Sequence record: MK327933.1
From: Escherichia phage vB_EcoM_G2285
Reading direction: 5' to 3' (one strand)
DNA length: 64,000 bases
Part shown: positions 3,635-45,309 of the stretch, piece by piece
How the letters are laid out: each line of letters begins with the position of its first letter
Position numbering within the stretch: the first letter of the stretch is position 1
The notes under the pieces: model-generated
The model's database searches: none
What the model was told of the DNA's origin: nothing
Seen by the model: only the letters and a program-made list of their open reading frames with translations
Program-made: the position numbers and the translations under genes

Positions 3635-3663
3635 AAAATTAAAATGAAGCTCCCGAAGGAGCT
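3635..3663 (-). terminator. rho-independent terminator (stem AGCTCC / GGAGCT, TTCG loop, U-rich tail)
   Basis: perfect palindrome agctcccgaaggagct overlapping gp39 stop, followed on minus strand by TCATTTTAATTTT. Confidence 0.5.
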
Positions 3664-5483
3664 TAGGACATCCATTCTTTACGAAGTTCTGAATCATCAC
3701 CCAACAACATTTCAAAGAGTTCTTTCCAATTTTCAGGAAGTTTAACTACGTCGTACACAGGGTTCTGAATCATTTCACGATACTCTGACTTTTCAAGGGA
3801 GCCTAATCCCTTGATGTATCGAATACTATGCTTAGGCAGTGTATCTTTAACTTCTTCATACTCAGCTACAGTATAAAACCATTTTTGAGTTTTGCCAATT
3901 TGTGCAATAATTACAGGTGTTTTAACAAAGCGAATACGTCCTTGTTCAAACAATTCGGGCCAATTACTAAAGAAAGCAAGCAAAGACGGATAAATACTTC
4001 CAAGACCGTCATGATCGGCATCGGTCATAATTGCAATATTACGATAGTTCGTATTCTCTGCCTTTTCACCAAGAATAAGACCTGTGATAGCACAGATATC
4101 AAAGAGCTCTTTGTTCTTCATCATATCAGCATATGACATACCCCAGCTATTCATCACCTTACCGCGTAATGGGAATCCGCCGTGTAGTTCACGGTCACGA
4201 ACATCAATGAGATAACCAATTGCCGAATCACCTTCTGTTAAGAACAATGTCGTATCTGCATCTTTACCACATTGGTTAGCTTTAATATGCTTATGAACCT
4301 TAGCTTTAGTTGCCTTTTTAGCTGCTTTAGTTTCTGCAGCCTTTTCTGCCGCCAATTTACGAGCTAATGCGGCTTCAATTATAGGCATTAAAACTGCTTC
4401 AGAATTCAAAATATTTTTTGCCAATTTTTTGGTATCTAATTTAATATGCGTCCGAATTTCGCCATAAGGACTTGTTAAACGCTCTTTGGTTTGGGAATCA
4501 AAACGAAGGTTCTTCATTCCACGAACGAACATTAAGAGAGTGAGACATTCCTTGATGCGCGCTTTAGTCACGTCGATTTTATATTTGCGTTTAATAGCCG
4601 GAATTAATTCTTCGCAAATGTCGTCCATCACACATTCAATGTGATGACCACCATTTTTAGTATGGATGTTATTCACATAAGTTAAATGACGGAAGCCATC
4701 TGGTGACCGACTAATGGCAATAGAGCATCCGTCTTGTTCTTGAATGATGGTCTCTTCATCAAATTGTTTAGCAAACTTCTTAAAGTTACCTTGAATCTTT
4801 TTGCCATTAAATTTAAATTCAATACCAGGATAAACGACTGCCAATGTTTGGAGCCGGTCTATAGTAATATCTTGGTATATTTTTTCAAATTGATTCATTT
4901 CAAAATGAGAGAAATCAGGAATAAACTCGACCTTAGTCCCGTTGTTTTTAGACGGCTTAGATTTCCAAGAAATATTATCAGCATTATTAGAACAATTAAC
5001 TGTCAATTCATTTTTACCATCTGAAGTAGTGCCAACAAAAGAGACAGAAAAAATATTTGTTAATGAAGAACCGACACCGTTTTGTCCACCCGTAACACGT
5101 TCTTTGTCGTCACCAAAGTTGCCACCGGCTTTTGTACGTGTCCACGCCGCAACTGGTCCTGGAATTTCTTCTCCTTCAGGAGTAATAACTGTTTCTTGAG
5201 GAATACCTCGACCATTATCTTCAACAGTCACTTTATTAGAATTTAAATCAATACTAACGGAAATTTTATTAGCATATTTGAAATTGGTTCGAATAGCTTC
5301 GTCTACCGAGTTGTCAATAATTTCATCAATTAATTTGAGAACACCTGCAACATATTTAACCTTTTTAAATTCACCAAATAGGAAACGTTCTTGTTCTTCA
5401 TTGGCAACACTTCCAATATACATGCCAGGACGCTTCAAACAATGCTCTTTATCAGATAGCATTTCAATTTTATTATCAATCAT
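3663..5483 (-). CDS. 39: DNA topoisomerase II large subunit (gene 39 with gene 60 fused, GyrB-like ATPase)
   Basis: HCLKRPGMYIGS GyrB-type motif; ~606 aa continuous ORF; start set at ATG 5483 (track start 5498 is TTG). Confidence 0.85.
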   Translation of the reverse strand: MIDNKIEMLSDKEHCLKRPGMYIGSVANEEQERFLFGEFKKVKYVAGVLKLIDEIIDNSVDEAIRTNFKYANKISVSIDLNSNKVTVEDNGRGIPQETVITPEGEEIPGPVAAWTRTKAGGNFGDDKERVTGGQNGVGSSLTNIFSVSFVGTTSDGKNELTVNCSNNADNISWKSKPSKNNGTKVEFIPDFSHFEMNQFEKIYQDITIDRLQTLAVVYPGIEFKFNGKKIQGNFKKFAKQFDEETIIQEQDGCSIAISRSPDGFRHLTYVNNIHTKNGGHHIECVMDDICEELIPAIKRKYKIDVTKARIKECLTLLMFVRGMKNLRFDSQTKERLTSPYGEIRTHIKLDTKKLAKNILNSEAVLMPIIEAALARKLAAEKAAETKAAKKATKAKVHKHIKANQCGKDADTTLFLTEGDSAIGYLIDVRDRELHGGFPLRGKVMNSWGMSYADMMKNKELFDICAITGLILGEKAENTNYRNIAIMTDADHDGLGSIYPSLLAFFSNWPELFEQGRIRFVKTPVIIAQIGKTQKWFYTVAEYEEVKDTLPKHSIRYIKGLGSLEKSEYREMIQNPVYDVVKLPENWKELFEMLLGDDSELRKEWMS

Positions 5484-6159
5484 TAGATTTTCTCTCAAAT
5501 TGCATGACTATATTTTTGTATGAACCTTCCGGAAATCCACGTTTAATGCTTTCTTTAGCAAATTTCCCAACCTTTGGTTTATCCAATTCTAACCATAATT
5601 TATATAAAGCAGATTCATATTCCCATACAGGACTTTTACGATTTTTAAGCCCACACTTTATAAGCGCTTCCTTTGTATGTTTCTTATTATAAAATGGATT
5701 GTTTTTGCCACTCATTGCTTTAGAATGTTCCGGGCGCTTAATTCCATACATCGGATTAAGATTGCCTTTCTTGATAATGGATTGTAGTTCAATAGTTTCT
5801 TCAGAGTGATTGTGTCCATAAAATGGATTTAACTCTTTTGAAACATCCATACCAAAACACCCATCGACTGTGGCATAAGACATGTTGAAAAATTTTTCAG
5901 ATTTAACCACATTATGCAATTTCTGGTAATACAACTCACAAAACGTCGCTTCTTCCCGTGTATCAAATTCGCCAATAATACATGAATCAAATAAATGAGG
6001 ATTATCTTTTATCTCTTTATCATAAATTTGTTTATATTTTTTCGACTTTACCGTACCATGATAGTAATTGTTTGTATGTTTATCAAGATAAGTAGACCCT
6101 ATATAAAACGGTGGCAACTTATCGCCTGTGTATATTGTTAAGTATGTTATGTATTTCAT
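5476..6159 (-). CDS. GIY-YIG homing endonuclease (Seg-like)
   Basis: N-terminal YLTIYTGDKLPPFYIGST GIY-YIG motif; NPxYG (NUMOD-like) repeats; C-terminal DNA-binding region. Confidence 0.7.
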   Translation of the reverse strand: MKYITYLTIYTGDKLPPFYIGSTYLDKHTNNYYHGTVKSKKYKQIYDKEIKDNPHLFDSCIIGEFDTREEATFCELYYQKLHNVVKSEKFFNMSYATVDGCFGMDVSKELNPFYGHNHSEETIELQSIIKKGNLNPMYGIKRPEHSKAMSGKNNPFYNKKHTKEALIKCGLKNRKSPVWEYESALYKLWLELDKPKVGKFAKESIKRGFPEGSYKNIVMQFERKSND

Positions 6160-12891: not shown

Positions 12892-12921
12892 TATAGTATC
12901 ATCGTCTGTAGAGTTTGTAAA
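12892..12921 (-). promoter_or_regulatory. early-type promoter (-35 GTTTAC, 18 bp, -10 TACTAT)
   Basis: minus GTTTAC-N18-TACTAT then ATCAACCACAGGAGAAACCTAAATG. Confidence 0.5.
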
Positions 12922-13274
12922 CTAAAAATTCAACATTTTTAAATGAATGATTTTGTATAATCGAGATAAAGGGGTCATATTCTAAGTCTTCAATTTCCAC
13001 AATCTCAAATCTAGAGATACCTGAGACCATGTACTCTTGTTCAAATTGACATGTCATGATAGAACCTCCATTTAAAGATAAGCCTATCATAACACGAGAG
13101 GAGGGAATGTAAACTACTTTTTAAGCTTTCCTACTAAAGGACCATCAGGACCAGGTTGTTCTAACATGAATAACGATGCTTTAAAAAGCAATGTCAACCC
13201 TTTCACCATTCGATACCATATCTCAAAGTCTTTTTCCTTGATTTCTAGTAAGAATTTCTCTTTAAATTTCTCTT

Positions 13275-25754: not shown

Positions 25755-26915
25755 TCATTCCGGGTACCTCAAAGCGTCATCAGAGTTAGTTATATCAATA
25801 ATAGATATAGAGTTTTCTGCTAACCCGGTTTTAGATAATTGACGTTTATAATATCTTTCACAATATGTACACGTCGTCCCGCAGATTTCATTAGCACAAT
25901 CGAAATCTGGATGTCTGAACCACCTTTTTTCTAAAAAGCCATCTAACAAAGAGGTTTCAATATTTACTGTATGTGAAAACTCTGTCTCATTTTCAAGAGT
26001 GAAAATGGTCTCTAAAGGCTTCCACAGTTCTAACAAATTACCTTCAAACTTTTCAGAAGCATAAGCTTCAAGAACTTTCAAAATGTAGTCTGTGCTACCT
26101 GTACGTCCTGAAACTTTGAATTGAGTGATACCAATATCATTATAAAGTTTCAAATCTTGAGGACGAACAAAACGAGTTCTCAACCAGTTAAATGGATCTG
26201 TATCACGAGCTTTAATACAGTGCTGCATTGGATATCCATTTAAAGATTTGGCATCATCAGCTGTAACATCAGTACTATGGAAAATATAGCAAGAGTCACG
26301 ATAACTACAATGTGTTGTATACCCTTTACCAGCATTAGAACAGAACTCATTTACAAGAACTTCAAATATTATATTGTTCTTATTGCAAAACTCTGCTGCA
26401 CGCTTCAGGAAAGAAACTGAACGGTTCTTATGAATTCCACAGCAGACCTTTTTGATATTATATTGGTCATGCAAGTATTTGATTTGAGTTACAGCATCGA
26501 CATGTAGAATTGTTGAAACTTCAATCTCAATATCTTTATTGACTTCACGAACAATTTCCATAACAACAGGGTTAGCGATAGTAATACGCCATACGCCTAT
26601 TGACCAAAGATACTGAACATAATCCTGAATAGCTTTCTTCTTCCACTCAACTAGTTCTCTTTTTGAACCAGGATTTATCGTGTTGAGTGTATAGTTAAAG
26701 CAAATACCTAATTCGTTACAACGTTTAACGTAATCTTCTAACATCTTTTTGTCAACGTCAGGAAGCCTAAAATCAGGTCTGGCTGCTACAAAAGCCATTT
26801 CTCTTGTAGAGCCGTATACTTCGTTTATCAAGCTATTAGGATAAGTTTTATTGAGCTCTACGATTTTATCAAGAAGAGCTAAATCAAAATTCGTTCCGAT
26901 TTTAAAAGTATTCAT
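25755..26915 (-). CDS. Cys-rich enzyme of unknown function (weak peptidase-U32-like resemblance)
   Basis: 386 aa; C-terminal C-x4-C-x3-C-x2-C cluster plus VCCG, CSNAG, HCSYRDSC. Confidence 0.5.
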   Translation of the reverse strand: MNTFKIGTNFDLALLDKIVELNKTYPNSLINEVYGSTREMAFVAARPDFRLPDVDKKMLEDYVKRCNELGICFNYTLNTINPGSKRELVEWKKKAIQDYVQYLWSIGVWRITIANPVVMEIVREVNKDIEIEVSTILHVDAVTQIKYLHDQYNIKKVCCGIHKNRSVSFLKRAAEFCNKNNIIFEVLVNEFCSNAGKGYTTHCSYRDSCYIFHSTDVTADDAKSLNGYPMQHCIKARDTDPFNWLRTRFVRPQDLKLYNDIGITQFKVSGRTGSTDYILKVLEAYASEKFEGNLLELWKPLETIFTLENETEFSHTVNIETSLLDGFLEKRWFRHPDFDCANEICGTTCTYCERYYKRQLSKTGLAENSISIIDITNSDDALRYPE

Positions 26916-26972
26916 TTTTTTTGCATCTCACGTTAATTGACGCGATGGTTTTTGCAGGTCTTACTTAAATTA

Positions 26973-34155: not shown

Positions 34156-34719
34156 TTACCATTCCAATGCTAATTTTTTAAATTGTTTTTGTTCTTTCAC
34201 ATTTTTTGTAACTTCTTTGAGAAACTCATCAGTGACCATGGCCTTCAGTTCTTTAAGGACTATTGGCAACTTGTTATTTTTTTCAAGGAGCCGCTTATAC
34301 TCGGTAGCATCATTCATGTTGATTGTGTAATGTTTCATCAACAGTTTGATAACTAGTAACTCTGAAGTGTCTTCGACTAGTTTAGCCCATTTAGAGAATC
34401 GACGACCACGCGGAATTGCTGCCATCATATAGTTGAAGTGCGCTTCATCACTTAATTCAGAACCGACTAAGTTCATCATGTAAACAGCTGGCATACATTC
34501 TGGGAACTGGGATAATGAGTTCTCAACCATAAATTTTGAGTAGTCGACCTGAGCAATTGACATAGATTTCTTTTCATTAATAGCATTAATGATTTTAAAG
34601 AATTCATTCTCAGGTTTTTCTTTAAACATATCAGCACATTTTTGAATCGCATCAGCATCATTAGACTTCCATGCAATTTGGTGCTCGTTAAGTTGGACGT
34701 CATCATCAAATAAGTTCAT
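34156..34719 (-). CDS. 62: clamp loader small subunit
   Basis: 187 aa; position and length match T4 gp62. Confidence 0.8.
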
Positions 34720-35758: not shown

Positions 35759-36445
35759 TTAGAAGTCGTGAGTAGAATCGGCTTCCATCGCAATAACATA
35801 ACTTACTTGAGAGCTTTCAAACTTAGCTGCAACTTTATCACCAGCTCCCCACAACATTACTTTATAGTTACCTGGCTGGATTTTCATATTAGCCATATTG
35901 ATTACGAAGTTAAAGTTGTTAGAACCATCATAATCGGTAAGAGTCAAAGAATACTTAGGACGAGTTAGTCCGGAATCTTCAACTTTATTATAGCCATTGA
36001 TAACAATTTTACCATCTTTATTTGTAATAGCAATTGTATCAATCTGAAGACCACGTGAAACTCGAAGCAATTGTTGAAGGTCTTCGGCTTTAATTTCAGT
36101 AATCACAGAAGCCACTGGGAATTGAATTGGCTTATTAGGAAAAACAATGGTGCTCTTGTCAGCGGCAGGCCAATAAACTGTGGAACGTGTATCTGCAATT
36201 TTAATATTACCATCAGTGTGCATTGAAATTTCAGCATCGTCAGACACTAGACTCAAAATGCTTAAGAAGCTATTCAAATCATAAAGTGCTACGTCAAAAT
36301 CAATTTCATCAGAGATATTTGCTTCCGCATAAGTGGTGCCATTAACTGCACGAGTCATAATAAATTTACCTTGACTCAGCAGAATGCCAGAGTTAATAGA
36401 AGCGAAGTTTTTCAGAATATTTACGGTTTCACGGCTAAGTTTCAT
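35759..36445 (-). CDS. 45: sliding clamp
   Basis: 228 aa; MKLSRETVNILKNFASINSGILLSQGKFIMTRAVNGTTYAEANISD matches recalled T4 gp45. Confidence 0.93.
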   Translation of the reverse strand: MKLSRETVNILKNFASINSGILLSQGKFIMTRAVNGTTYAEANISDEIDFDVALYDLNSFLSILSLVSDDAEISMHTDGNIKIADTRSTVYWPAADKSTIVFPNKPIQFPVASVITEIKAEDLQQLLRVSRGLQIDTIAITNKDGKIVINGYNKVEDSGLTRPKYSLTLTDYDGSNNFNFVINMANMKIQPGNYKVMLWGAGDKVAAKFESSQVSYVIAMEADSTHDF

Positions 36446-37340
36446 TTAGGTTTCCTATTAGCATAATAATTTGTCCAAGACCGGATAGCACCTTGGTATG
36501 ATTCATCATTAAAACCATGCTGAATTGCATGTTTTCTAAATGTAATATAACTTGGTTTTCCTAAAGCAATCCACAATTCCTTTAATTTTTGTTCATGAAA
36601 TATCCATGTACCTCTAGCTTTAGATTTTCTGAATTTATCCTTAAATTCTTTGGTTGCATTTCTTTTCGAAGCTGCGATAGAGGCCTTTGCTCTATTTTCA
36701 GGTTTAGACCAATACAATGTTTTAGATATTTTTATTTTATCTTTAACATTAGGAGAATTCATTATATCTTTAAATTTTAAAGCAAAATCTCTATCGCTAA
36801 ACATTTTTTAGAACGAATAGAAACTTTCTCTCTTCGTTCTTTGGTCCAATATGTTTTTTGAAATTCTCTAATTGCGTTTAAATGATTCTCCGACAATTTG
36901 CAATTTTTTCTAACACCGACGTAATCTTCATTTATTTCGTTTTTAGAAAGTTTTACTATTTTGCCTGTTTTTAAATTTTTATACGGTGCGTATCCTTTAG
37001 CTGATATTCTAGACTTCTCGTTAGCATAAGCCTTATTAAAATATTTTTCATTTGAAACGGCTTTAACATTGAGTTGGAATAGTCTTTCTATTCTTCTAGG
37101 GTCTAATGTGGTTTCGCCTAAAATTTTTACAGAATATTCGCCTTGGTCTATTAATCTGTTATATAAAGGAGAATACGAGGAATTAACACTACCGGTATAT
37201 ATTTTACCGGTAGAATCTTCAATAATATCCTTTCCATTAAAATGACACGAAACTTTAGAACCTATATAATAACACGGGTATTCATTTTTAATCTCACGAT
37301 TATAAAAGGTTATAAGATATATTAAATTCATAATTATCAA
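36442..37340 (-). pseudogene. Seg-like GIY-YIG homing endonuclease split into two overlapping ORFs (36777-37340 catalytic domain; 36442-36804 DNA-binding domain)
   Basis: N-terminal ORF has YLITFYNREIKNEYPCYYIGSK GIY-YIG motif; C-terminal ORF aligns to C-terminus of the 5476-6159 endonuclease (W..L..LW..L.KP..F.K..I..GF..SY); frames differ. Confidence 0.5.
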
Positions 37341-37753
37341 GCAGCAACCATTTGCTTTTTAATAGCTTCAGGCAGTGATTCAATATATTCTGGAATTTTA
37401 GAAGCAACAATTTCGCCAGCTGCAATTAGTTGTTCGTCGGCATCAACACAGTAAAAATCTTCAAGGCGTTCAGAACCGTCTTTATCAAGAACGATTTTAG
37501 CACCTGCTTCGATAGAATCTTTATAGTGCTTACGCATCAAATGAATCCACATATCAGACACATCGTTATCAATAAAACCATAAATCATGAAACGAGTTTC
37601 TTGTGGAAGAGATTGAAGCTTTTTAGCACTTGCGTCATCACAATGCAGGACCCATGCTTTACGAACACGATTATGGTTATGTGGGTTAGCGTCAGTACGG
37701 ATAGAAGTAACTTTCAGATCAGCAGCAGTGAAACCTTTAGCAGTAGTAAACAT
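37337..37753 (-). CDS. hypothetical protein
   Basis: 138 aa ORF. Confidence 0.5.
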   Translation of the reverse strand: MFTTAKGFTAADLKVTSIRTDANPHNHNRVRKAWVLHCDDASAKKLQSLPQETRFMIYGFIDNDVSDMWIHLMRKHYKDSIEAGAKIVLDKDGSERLEDFYCVDADEQLIAAGEIVASKIPEYIESLPEAIKKQMVAA

Positions 37754-37765
37754 ATTATTTCTCTC

Positions 37766-37957
37766 TTATTCGTAGAAGTCGGTAACTGTCCATGCGGAAT
37801 TGCGATTAGACATTATTTTATTATACTCATCTTTAAAAGCAGATTCGAGCATTTGTTCAGTAACAATATGTTCTTCACCTGAAAACGTATTGGTCAAAAC
37901 ATATTTTTTAATTTCAGGGACAACAAGAAGATGTTGACCAGTTGAATACTCCGCCAT
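37766..37957 (-). CDS. hypothetical small protein
   Basis: 63 aa ORF. Confidence 0.4.
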   Translation of the reverse strand: MAEYSTGQHLLVVPEIKKYVLTNTFSGEEHIVTEQMLESAFKDEYNKIMSNRNSAWTVTDFYE

Positions 37958-38034
37958 TATAAATCTCCGAGATTAAAGCAATATAAATAGGTTTATCAAT
38001 TTATCTGTTGCTGTATCAAATAAGGATTTAGTAA

Positions 38035-38751
38035 ATGAATTATAACTCAATATACGAAAAGCTTATCACCAATGCTAAATCAAGAAGTTTAGATGGTTAT
38101 ACAGAACGTCATCACATTATACCACAATGTTTAGGTGGAAGTGATGATGCTTTAAACTTAGTAGACTTAACACCGGAAGAACATTATTTGGCACATCAAC
38201 TGTTGGTAAAAATCCATCCAGATAATGCCTCTTTAATATATGCTGCTCGTATGATGACTATCTCATCTCCTAAAGCAGATAGAAGCAAAAACAAATTATT
38301 TGGATGGCTTCGACGTAAGAATCAAGAAGTTCAAAAGAACAAAGAATTCACTGCTGAAACTCGTAAGAAAATGTCCGAGTCGGCAAAAAATAAACCAAAG
38401 ATTACATGTCCACACTGCGGTTTAACCGGCACTGAAGGAAACATGAGACGTTGGCATTTTGATAACTGTAAACAAGGCCCTACGCCTAAAATAGTAAAAC
38501 TTGATCAAGAAACAAAGGATAAAATAATTAAAACCATGGCCACGAAAATTTGGAAAGAAGATTCTTGCCCGTTTTGTGGCTTAACTACTAAGTTATCGGC
38601 GTTAAAGCCGCATATAAAATTCTGTAAATCAAATCCTAACAGAAAGAAAAAAGAGGACAAGAAAATTAAATGTCCTCATTGCGATAAAATAGGGATCCCT
38701 GCTAATATGCGTCGTTGGCATTTTGATAACTGTAAACATAAGCCTCATTAA
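38035..38751 (+). CDS. HNH homing endonuclease (Mob-like) with three zinc-finger repeats
   Basis: ERHHIIPQCLGGSDDALNLVDLTPEEHYLAH HNH motif; three CPHCG/CPFCG..MRRWHFDNCK repeats; plus strand among minus genes. Confidence 0.8.
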   Translation: MNYNSIYEKLITNAKSRSLDGYTERHHIIPQCLGGSDDALNLVDLTPEEHYLAHQLLVKIHPDNASLIYAARMMTISSPKADRSKNKLFGWLRRKNQEVQKNKEFTAETRKKMSESAKNKPKITCPHCGLTGTEGNMRRWHFDNCKQGPTPKIVKLDQETKDKIIKTMATKIWKEDSCPFCGLTTKLSALKPHIKFCKSNPNRKKKEDKKIKCPHCDKIGIPANMRRWHFDNCKHKPH

Positions 38752-40436
38752 GAGGCTTTCATTACAGTAAATCGTCCAACTTTGCTCATTTGCAAATGCT
38801 GTCCATAAGCTTGTGGGTCATGGTCTCTGTGACTAATTATAAACACGTTTGCATCGGTTAGAGAGTTAAGAATTGTTGAAATAGCTTTAATACCTTCAGA
38901 ATCAGTCGCGGAATCCATGACTTCGTCCATAATTAATGTATTGATTCTAACACCAGAGACCTTTTCAGCAATATCTCGCCATGTAAACAACAACGCGATA
39001 TCAATACGTGCTTTTTCACCTTGACTAAATGAAGCATAACTGAACTCTTCACGGCCACGTGATTTTATAGATTCGTTGAATTCTTCGTCAATAGAAAACA
39101 CGTAATCAGCTTCCATGATTTTAAGATAATGGTTAATCTGCTTGTTGAACAGAGGCACATATTTTTTAATGATAGCACCTTTAATACCAGAATCTTTTAA
39201 CATATCTGTAATAATACCACGATGGTATTTTTCAAGAACGATATCTGATTTTGTTTTAATGATTTTATCAAGTTCTTTTTGAAGCAAAGCTATCTCATCG
39301 GCATGGTCGATAAATTCTGCTGAGGCTTGCTCTATTGCAGCTTTAACTTTCTTAGCTTTATCAATAGTGGCAATCATTGCTTGTTTCTTGGTACGAATAT
39401 CAGATGCAAGGTCCTGTTTAGTCTTAACATTAGCTCTATATTCGTCCACTAGGACACTCAGATTATCTCTGTGACATGTAAGTTGCTCGAATGAGTGATT
39501 ACATTCATGAAGCTTATCGGTAATCTTAGAGACAATAGGATCACCCTGGTGCAACTGTGATGCACAAGTAGGACATGTGCCACCGTCATGATACATCTTA
39601 ATAACTTTGTTATATGAGTCGATTTTAGATTTAATCAAGAATGCTTCTTGTCCTATCTTGTTGAATGCCTCAGTAGGGTCTTCGTCAAGAACGATATTAA
39701 GTAGACGCTCGTTAGCTTCTTCAATTTCTGCTTTTAATGAACGAGCTTCTTTGGCTAGGTCGTCATACATATTCTGTAGACGCGCTACATTATCACCAGA
39801 TAATTTCTTTTGACGTTCGATATTCTCGTTATAAATCTTAATTTGTTGGATAACACCATCTTTCTTGGCATCGAGAACTTGTCCCTGGGAATTAAGTTCT
39901 CGAACTTGAGACTTATTGATTTTATCCATTTCAGCGAGTGTGCCGACTTCTAAAAGGTCTTCGACAAGTTTTCTACGAGCAGGGGTGCTAAGAGCCATGA
40001 AAGGGGTATACCCTGCCGTCCCAAGCACAACGATCTGTTTAAAAGACGCGTATGACATTCCGATGCTACGTTCAAATTCTTCTTGGAAGTCACGACTGCT
40101 GGCAGATTCATCAAGACGAACACCGTCAACGGAGATTTCGAAAATATTGGGCTTTTGGCCACGTCTAATGAAGTATTTTTTATCATCGAATTCCATCCAA
40201 AGCTCAACTAAGAGCTCTTTCTTGTTCGTGCTATTAATGATTTGTCCTTTCTTAACATCACGAAATGGTTTACCGAAAAGTCCGAAAGTAATGGCTTCTA
40301 ACATCGTAGATTTACCACCGCCATTTTTACCTGTGATTAAGGTCTTTTGGACTTTATCTAATTGGATATCGATAAAATTTTGCCCAACAGACATTATATT
40401 TTTATAACGAACACGATTTAATTTAAATGTTTTCAT
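38748..40436 (-). CDS. 46: recombination endonuclease subunit (Rad50/SbcC-like)
   Basis: 562 aa; Walker A GKNGGGKST, coiled-coil middle, C-terminal D-loop region LIMDEVMDS. Confidence 0.9.
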   Translation of the reverse strand: MKTFKLNRVRYKNIMSVGQNFIDIQLDKVQKTLITGKNGGGKSTMLEAITFGLFGKPFRDVKKGQIINSTNKKELLVELWMEFDDKKYFIRRGQKPNIFEISVDGVRLDESASSRDFQEEFERSIGMSYASFKQIVVLGTAGYTPFMALSTPARRKLVEDLLEVGTLAEMDKINKSQVRELNSQGQVLDAKKDGVIQQIKIYNENIERQKKLSGDNVARLQNMYDDLAKEARSLKAEIEEANERLLNIVLDEDPTEAFNKIGQEAFLIKSKIDSYNKVIKMYHDGGTCPTCASQLHQGDPIVSKITDKLHECNHSFEQLTCHRDNLSVLVDEYRANVKTKQDLASDIRTKKQAMIATIDKAKKVKAAIEQASAEFIDHADEIALLQKELDKIIKTKSDIVLEKYHRGIITDMLKDSGIKGAIIKKYVPLFNKQINHYLKIMEADYVFSIDEEFNESIKSRGREEFSYASFSQGEKARIDIALLFTWRDIAEKVSGVRINTLIMDEVMDSATDSEGIKAISTILNSLTDANVFIISHRDHDPQAYGQHLQMSKVGRFTVMKAS

Positions 40437-44918: not shown

Positions 44919-45309
44919 CGCGTTTGATAAAATTCACTTCACTTACTGAAAGGTCTTTAAGACCGATTGATTCTAAACGCTGAATAAAAGTCAACATTGG
45001 GATATAGTCCCAATGTGTTTTAGACGTTTGATAAGTACGGACGCCATTAGCAATTTCAACGTTCAAATCGGAAATGGTAATGAATATCGGACGTTCGTTA
45101 TTTACATTAAGAGATAGAACAACTTTCTTCGAATTCAGACTAATCATTTTGTTTTCCTCTGTAGTAGATGATGCTAATCTTAACATATCTATCGAGGATG
45201 TAAACTGTTTTATGAAAATATTTTTGATTTGAGAGGGGCACAAGGAGATAGTGAAGTGAAGATTCCAATGGATTATATTAGAAATGAGATAAAGAAGACC
45301 AGGCGGCAC
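44899..45309 (-). CDS. hypothetical protein
   Basis: 136 aa ORF. Confidence 0.45.
   Translation of the reverse strand: MPPGLLYLISNIIHWNLHFTISLCPSQIKNIFIKQFTSSIDMLRLASSTTEENKMISLNSKKVVLSLNVNNERPIFITISDLNVEIANGVRTYQTSKTHWDYIPMLTFIQRLESIGLKDLSVSEVNFIKRVVSINL

Follow-up and report, generated by a model that had tools for sequence, protein, structure and literature searches.

A Seg-like homing endonuclease gene split by a one-base frameshift between rpbA and gene 45 of a T4-like phage, probably a recent pseudogene

We analysed a stretch of 64,000 nucleotides (hereafter the window) from the genome of vB_EcoM_G2285 (MK327933; 166,675 bp), a phage from pig manure. The phage is T4-like and belongs to the genus Mosigvirus, and on the minus strand of the window gene 46, 45.2, rpbA, two overlapping reading frames (ORF A and ORF B), gene 45 and genes 44 and 62 follow one another in this order. 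The features of the locus are the following:

35759-36445, minus strand: gene 45 (sliding clamp), the downstream flank, identified from the annotation of relatives
36413-36445, minus strand: first 11 codons of gene 45, with a substitution cluster seen in alignment with empty-site phages; putative target region
36442-37331, minus strand: whole Seg-like homing endonuclease gene, frameshifted allele; adding one A gives a 296-aa ORF
36442-36804, minus strand: ORF B, 120 aa, from an ATG at 36804 to a stop at 36444-36442; endonuclease residues 177-296
36451-36456, minus strand: AGGAAA Shine-Dalgarno of gene 45, inside the last codons of the endonuclease, read from the sequence
36777-37331, minus strand: ORF A, 184 aa, from the ATG at 37331 shared with homologues to a stop at 36779-36777
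36804-36809, minus strand: lesion site, an A6 run (T6 on the plus strand), from the alignment of 10 alleles with run lengths counted directly
37337-37753, minus strand: rpbA, the upstream flank (Pfam PF10789, E = 4.8e-48; annotation of relatives)
37766-37957, minus strand: 45.2, from the gene order of the window
38035-38751, plus strand: HNH-type gene between 45.2 and gene 46, on the opposite strand
38748-40436, minus strand: gene 46, from the gene order of the window

A preliminary description of this DNA had noted two ORFs in different frames (36777-37340 and 36442-36804), overlapping by 28 nt and located between genes 45 and 46. Both are present on the minus strand as described, with the overlap at 36777-36804. 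Their placement holds on one side: the pair abuts gene 45, but the other flank is rpbA, and gene 46 is not directly adjacent. The longer version of ORF A (36777-37340) starts from a TTG at 37340, which lies upstream of the start common to all homologues; the rpbA stop precedes that common ATG by 5 nt. With (37331-36804) mod 3 = 2, the frame of ORF B is -1 with respect to that of ORF A. ORF A consists of endonuclease residues 1-176 followed by an out-of-frame tail of eight residues, CLAIEILL, and contains a catalytic domain of the GIY-YIG type and a small beta subdomain, together with the two leading helices of the DNA-binding region, while ORF B contains helical NUMOD3-like repeats and a conserved C-terminal domain. 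Proteins deposited for G2285 are identical to the two products (ORF A, QBO62488.1, 184 aa; ORF B, QBO62487.1, 120 aa).

The end of the endonuclease gene is interlocked with the start of gene 45. Its last codons (N-R-K-x-K) hold the AGGAAA of gene 45, with N292, R293, K294 and K296 invariant in the family, and its TGA stop overlaps the gene 45 ATG (ATGA). The same arrangement of Shine-Dalgarno and start of gene 45 was found in VR26 and ESh25, two phages with a related gene at this site (loci 1501-2388 and 601-1488, respectively). In both, the endonuclease gene shares bases with each neighbour, its start with the stop of rpbA (GTGA / ATGA) and its stop with the start of gene 45, so that no spacer is left at either end, unlike the Mosigvirus allele with its 5-nt spacer after rpbA. 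Promoter, terminator and Rfam scans of the rpbA/gene 45 locus gave nothing above chance. A perfect 9-bp inverted repeat with a 7-nt loop lies within the endonuclease coding sequence (37189-37213, minus strand; CTACCGGTA-AAATATA-TACCGGTAG) and encodes S-T-G-K-I-Y-T-G-S; it was flagged in the terminator scan, but no T-run follows it.

The two frames are the pieces of one split gene, as had been proposed: they align to consecutive residues (1-178 and 176-296) of a single 296-aa protein of a sister phage, at 98-99% identity (E = 1.6e-129 for ORF A and 7.7e-87 for ORF B). The same insert occurs in nine GenBank phage genomes at 98.7-99.6% nucleotide identity (AV111, AV116, JM17, FL18, FL31, AV109, AV114, AV118 and AV115), which together with the window gave a ten-way alignment. 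Five of these nine carriers (AV116, FL31, AV109, AV114 and AV118) have a single 891-nt ORF of 296 aa. In the ten-way alignment one A that all nine relatives have is absent from the window. The run at 36809-36804 is A6 in the window alone; every intact allele has A7, and AV115 has A11. The A7 was counted directly in five relatives and read from the alignment in AV109, AV114 and AV118. At the intact junction the sequence is TCT AAA AAA ATG TTT (S-K-K-M-F). In the window the ATG of ORF B begins with the final A of the run, so that the apparent start of ORF B is the internal codon of Met177. When one A is added to the window gene, a 296-aa ORF results that differs by 2 residues from the AV109 protein. 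The window gene has no second lesion, and its sole private in-gene substitution, at 36990, is synonymous by our own codon reading. Given this lack of further damage, the event is either very recent or not real.

The window copy is not the only broken one. Four distinct indels, all in A-runs, interrupt 5 of the 10 copies, and the other five are intact at 296 aa. The broken alleles are:

Window: A7 > A6
AV115: A7 > A11, in the same run as the window
JM17 and FL18: A6 > A7, near 36860
AV111: A5 > A4, near 36733

The protein cluster also contains fragments of 70, 151 and 246 aa from other assemblies, together with more intact 296-aa copies. Only two homopolymers of at least 7 nt occur in the 64-kb window, and the A7 of the intact gene would make three, which makes this A7 a tract unusually prone to slippage. 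Streisinger-type homopolymer frameshift hot spots of T4 lie in rIIB and in the lysozyme gene. The four lesions listed above resemble them in being changes of A-run length, but they come from natural isolates and were not selected. The A11 of AV115 is a +4 expansion of A7 in an Illumina-sequenced phage and suggests that the A7 tract is truly unstable in vivo. The longest homopolymer in the window is a T8 at 26915-26922; at a nearby T-run (~26949) the window has T5 and AV111 T10.

More distant relatives occupy the same site. A database search returned just four close full-length homologues (292-296 aa, 49-99% identity), which are conserved across the junction and above all in the C-terminal 60 residues. 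By tblastn of phage genomes, the family was found between rpbA and gene 45 in VR26 and TH15 (62%) and at the same site in about 26 Tequatrovirus-type records (57-60%), all of them single-piece except ESh24, an unverified record with T6 > T7. From IMG/VR, a scan contributed VR26 and two distant loci and nothing more. Where the window gene is broken, homologues at 49-63% identity lack an A-run; the VR26 allele has no run of at least 6 nt, and in ESh25, the one Tequatrovirus allele looked at, the only such run is a T6 elsewhere. Since these distant alleles lack an A-run at the break site, the two-frame arrangement is not conserved.

The protein is poorly covered by curated family models. Pfam and NCBIfam gave no match for ORF A, ORF B, the 296-aa AV116 allele (Pfam) or P0001 (NCBIfam), and the GIY-YIG models proper (Pfam GIY-YIG and SegE_GIY-YIG, TIGR01453) did not recognise this protein. 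PHROG 7504 ("homing endonuclease") matched residues 1-137 (E = 2.6e-16). A profile search of 1.8 billion representative proteins yielded 228 relatives, mostly of 280-320 aa. NUMOD3 motifs are present in 44 of the 57 relatives that were aligned, although none was detected in this protein itself, and only 3 of the 57 reached SegE_GIY-YIG (PF19835, E = 3e-4). Sequence searches of the PDB with the single sequence and with a 5-sequence profile returned nothing useful; the 57-sequence family profile found only the DNA-binding domain of I-TevI (1i3j), around residues 168-198 (E = 0.0044). An AlphaFold model built from 4 sequences (pLDDT 57) was too poor for use.

The preliminary description had placed a GIY-YIG domain in ORF A. 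The GIY and YIG motifs appear as L-I-Y5 and Y22-I23-G24 (I23 is at least 90% conserved in the 57 relatives), the alpha/beta fold of GIY-YIG nucleases was recovered, and the closest hit of a fold search was SegG / gp32.1. Y5, P19, Y22, G24, K26, Y45, S48, E82 and N99 are invariant in the family alignment of 57 relatives and fit the GIY...YIG...E...N pattern of GIY-YIG nucleases. The catalytic residues of I-TevI are E75 and N90, and the Arg after its YIG motif is R27. E82 and N99 fit the catalytic Glu and Asn by order and spacing rather than by residue-level alignment to I-TevI, and K26, which is invariant, and R12, which is nearly so, are candidates for the Arg after the YIG motif. When the family was compared by hhalign with an I-TevI sequence, the NUMOD3-like element alone was aligned (probability 48%), so we only infer the equivalences with the catalytic residues of I-TevI.

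A likeness of the C-terminal region to another Seg-like enzyme of the window, also pointed out earlier, was recovered. An intact Seg-like ORF of 227 aa (5476-6159, minus strand; NUMOD3, E = 9e-11) matches residues 246-286 at 34% identity (E = 8e-6) and the N-terminal residues 18-103 at 29% identity. Because this ORF shares both the N- and the C-terminal parts, we file the gene as a Seg-like GIY-YIG homing endonuclease, one whose catalytic domain lies beyond the reach of sequence models.

The Seg endonucleases of T4, SegA-SegG, are free-standing GIY-YIG homing endonucleases of T-even phages. Like them, the gene is free-standing, sits between conserved genes and is present in some close relatives and absent from others; its product joins an N-terminal GIY-YIG-type domain to a helical DNA-binding region that is probably of the NUMOD3 type, and the neighbouring essential gene carries a cluster of substitutions that fits a resistant target. 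It differs from the Seg genes of T4 in that the rpbA/gene 45 locus is unoccupied in T4 itself, in that neither Pfam nor NCBIfam recognises its product, in the C-terminal ~55 residues, a conserved domain that otherwise occurs in only a few Seg-like proteins, among them that of 5476-6159, and in the frameshift of this copy. I-TevI is the td intron endonuclease of T4, and its catalytic domain (PDB 1ln0) and DNA-binding domain (1i3j) are separate structures. The two-part architecture of catalytic and DNA-binding regions is common to both enzymes. Unlike I-TevI, however, the gene does not lie in an intron, the linker showed no zinc finger, and the two tyrosines of the GIY-YIG motifs are spaced by 17 residues, against 11 in I-TevI. 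Identity to the I-TevI catalytic domain is ~19%, and sequence-profile methods do not detect that domain. By analogy with I-TevI, a truncated catalytic fragment without its DNA-binding half would have no site-specific activity.

The insert is present in only a small share of related phages. Nine of 198 matching Mosigvirus-type records carry it, and ~189 of the 198 are empty, with a 42-nt spacer between rpbA and gene 45. In Tequatrovirus, an insert was found in 25 of 625 matching records (about 500 of them at 95% identity or more), and ~95% are empty. Among matching records of the Mosigvirus and Tequatrovirus types, roughly 5% have a member of the family at the rpbA/gene 45 junction. In carriers the 42-nt spacer is swapped for TAATT plus the 891-nt gene. 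Carriers also differ from empty-site phages at the beginning of gene 45, where the cluster (codons 2-11) includes a silent CTG > CTT and a serine switch TCT > AGC; downstream of it, gene 45 of carriers and non-carriers is almost fully identical. A 44-nt stretch of the carrier variant was found at 100% identity in only the nine carrier records (9/9 carriers, 0 non-carriers) among 50,697 phage records, and a parallel cluster separates gene 45 of the Tequatrovirus carrier ESh25 from that of T4.

The predominance of empty sites and the linked gene 45 variant argue for the mobile character of the gene. For Seg enzymes, resistant targets of this kind have been described (review: PMC2988022). By analogy, the intact enzyme would cleave genomes that lack the insert, either at the start of gene 45 or close to it, and carriers would be protected from cleavage by their gene 45 5' variant. 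The linked cluster of substitutions predicts the putative target site of the enzyme.

We consider it probable that the two ORFs are a recently inactivated frameshift pseudogene of a free-standing Seg-like GIY-YIG homing endonuclease. In a minority of T4-like phages, the endonuclease gene would have taken the place of the ~42-nt rpbA/gene 45 spacer: during co-infection, the intact enzyme would cut insert-free DNA near the start of gene 45, and the gene would be copied in by recombinational repair along with the resistant 5' end of gene 45. A one-base deletion in the only A7 run of the gene (A7 to A6 at 36809-36804) would then have left the C-terminal DNA-binding half in the -1 frame; as a result of this change, translation from the normal start ends after 176 native and 8 out-of-frame residues. 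Such an inactivation may be an early step of decay once endonuclease activity is no longer selected. RNA polymerase or the ribosome could still slip on the A6 and yield traces of full-length enzyme, which is plausible because a -1 slip gives the exact wild-type junction S-K-K-M.

The life cycle described for homing endonucleases runs through invasion, fixation, degeneration and loss (PMC2988022). Consistent with it, about half of the near-identical copies are broken by independent frameshifts while the resistant flank is kept; unlike it, no stage of deletion (loss) was seen among the isolates. This snapshot is drawn from isolates of a few pig-waste and wastewater collections, and laboratory propagation or sequencing error may contribute to it.

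The main competing explanation is that the phage truly has A7 and an intact 296-aa gene, and that one A of the homopolymer was dropped from the consensus sequence. What is missing is exactly one base of the gene's longest homopolymer, and neither half of the gene has gathered other damage. One-base homopolymer deletion is the typical residual error of PacBio sequencing, and the source study used PacBio RSII/HGAP for part of its phages. That study obtained its genomes with either PacBio RSII/HGAP or Illumina/SPAdes and does not name the platform used for each phage, so an error of this kind has to be reckoned with. On the other hand, the coverage of MK327933 is listed as 295x, an A7 run in gene 62 (34277-34283) is read in frame, and no other coding frameshift relative to AV111 was found in the aligned ~90% of the 64-kb window. 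Within that aligned part, just two unpaired 1-nt indels fall in real coding sequence, both in this gene and one in each genome. Sister phages sequenced with Illumina also show comparable breaks in the same gene: AV111 and AV115 were sequenced with Illumina MiSeq 2x250 (PMC10844046), and because these two carry other breaks, real frameshifts do occur in it. We therefore judge a real mutation to be the probable source of the missing A and an artefact to be rather unlikely, though a serious contender. A +1/-1 pair of indels at 45174/45225 was considered as a compensated frameshift and dropped, the genomes having different genes or upstream sequence there.

The A-runs of the Mosigvirus allele (A7, A6, A6 and several A5) might instead form a reversible on/off switch for a potentially harmful nuclease, an idea to which we give very little credence. 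Replication slippage would then toggle the gene, and populations would always hold intact and broken copies. The broken share (5 of 10 genomes through four independent events, all in A-runs and counting both A7 > A6 and A7 > A11 at the same run) would then be due to selection rather than to neutral decay, and residual -1 slippage on the A6 would supply a low dose of full-length enzyme.

Besides a frameshift pseudogene, the preliminary description had allowed for expression by frameshifting or as two polypeptides. The pseudogene is favoured by intact single-ORF orthologues and a simple indel; the other two options are improbable, as the split is not conserved. Programmed recoding would make the A6 a functional -1 frameshift or transcriptional slippage site that gives a short catalytic product and the full-length enzyme, which we find hardly credible. 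It is true that a -1 slip of tRNA-Lys on AAA-AAA before the AUG would restore the exact wild-type junction, and the local RNA folds somewhat better than shuffled sequences (z = -2.9). The same sequence, however, is present in intact alleles, so the fold did not evolve for frameshifting. The predicted downstream pairing begins at the AUG itself, leaves no spacer and is AU-rich; a hairpin upstream ends 1 nt before the run; and neither a stimulatory structure 5-9 nt downstream nor an upstream SD-like element was found at the A6. The zero-frame heptamer, U-AAA-AAA followed by U, is not the canonical X-XXY-YYZ, and on slipping there only the A-site codon re-pairs perfectly. The Rfam scan gave no match. 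Conservation points the same way, for the A6 occurs in this genome alone: in the five intact alleles the run is an in-frame A7, the four remaining broken alleles have A7 here (A11 in AV115) and owe their frameshifts to other A-run indels, and more distant homologues (49-63% identity) show no A-run in this place. Nor do homologues share the two-frame arrangement, intact alleles and distant homologues being single ORFs.

It is just as improbable that ORF A and ORF B act in trans as a functional two-piece enzyme, or that ORF B alone binds DNA as a domesticated fragment. Both halves are undamaged, and enzymes of the I-TevI type are modular, with separable catalytic and DNA-binding domains. Yet the frameshift interrupts a predicted helix (164-179) of the helical DNA-binding array instead of separating two domains, other broken alleles have their interruptions at other points, and the family shows no conserved split. 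Production of ORF B would require termination-reinitiation, with either the ATG of 36804 or that of 36768 as its start. Some reinitiation is possible because the in-frame ATG at 36768 sits 9 nt after the stop of ORF A, but neither ATG is preceded by a Shine-Dalgarno. Programmed frameshifting and a functional split enzyme were both rejected for want of conservation.

A recent frameshift pseudogene at this site is, taken alone, a finding of little weight: it presents a textbook selfish homing endonuclease gene early in decay, the phenomenon is well known, and both pieces have already been deposited as hypothetical proteins of vB_EcoM_G2285. For annotation, these two hypothetical proteins can be joined as one frameshifted Seg-like endonuclease gene, and the rpbA/gene 45 family, which has no Pfam or NCBIfam match in the sequences tested, could receive a name. 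The ten near-identical alleles, five intact and five broken, are a natural series for the speed of decay in T4-like phages.

Other endonuclease loci were seen in the window. The HNH-type gene at 38035-38751 (plus strand) is a second free-standing endonuclease, of 238 aa and with zinc-ribbon repeats (PHROG 655, E = 1e-66). Its end runs into that of gene 46, the sequence TATAAATA, a perfect T4 late-promoter motif, stands 46 nt upstream of its start (37982-37989, plus strand), and among the nine close relatives it is present in only FL31. The intact Seg-like endonuclease gene at 5476-6159 (minus strand) lies just upstream of topoisomerase gene 39 (3663-5498, minus strand). Gene 39 is only 80.7% identical to that of AV111, against 93% for the adjoining segments, and in AV111 the opposite flank of gene 39 holds another, different "homing endonuclease". 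The pattern looks like divergence of an essential gene associated with the endonuclease beside it. Finally, at ~12900-13120 the window lacks about 440 bp relative to AV111 in the modA/modB (ADP-ribosyltransferase) pair, and the junction shows a remnant ORF of 73 codons and two single-base differences from AV111.
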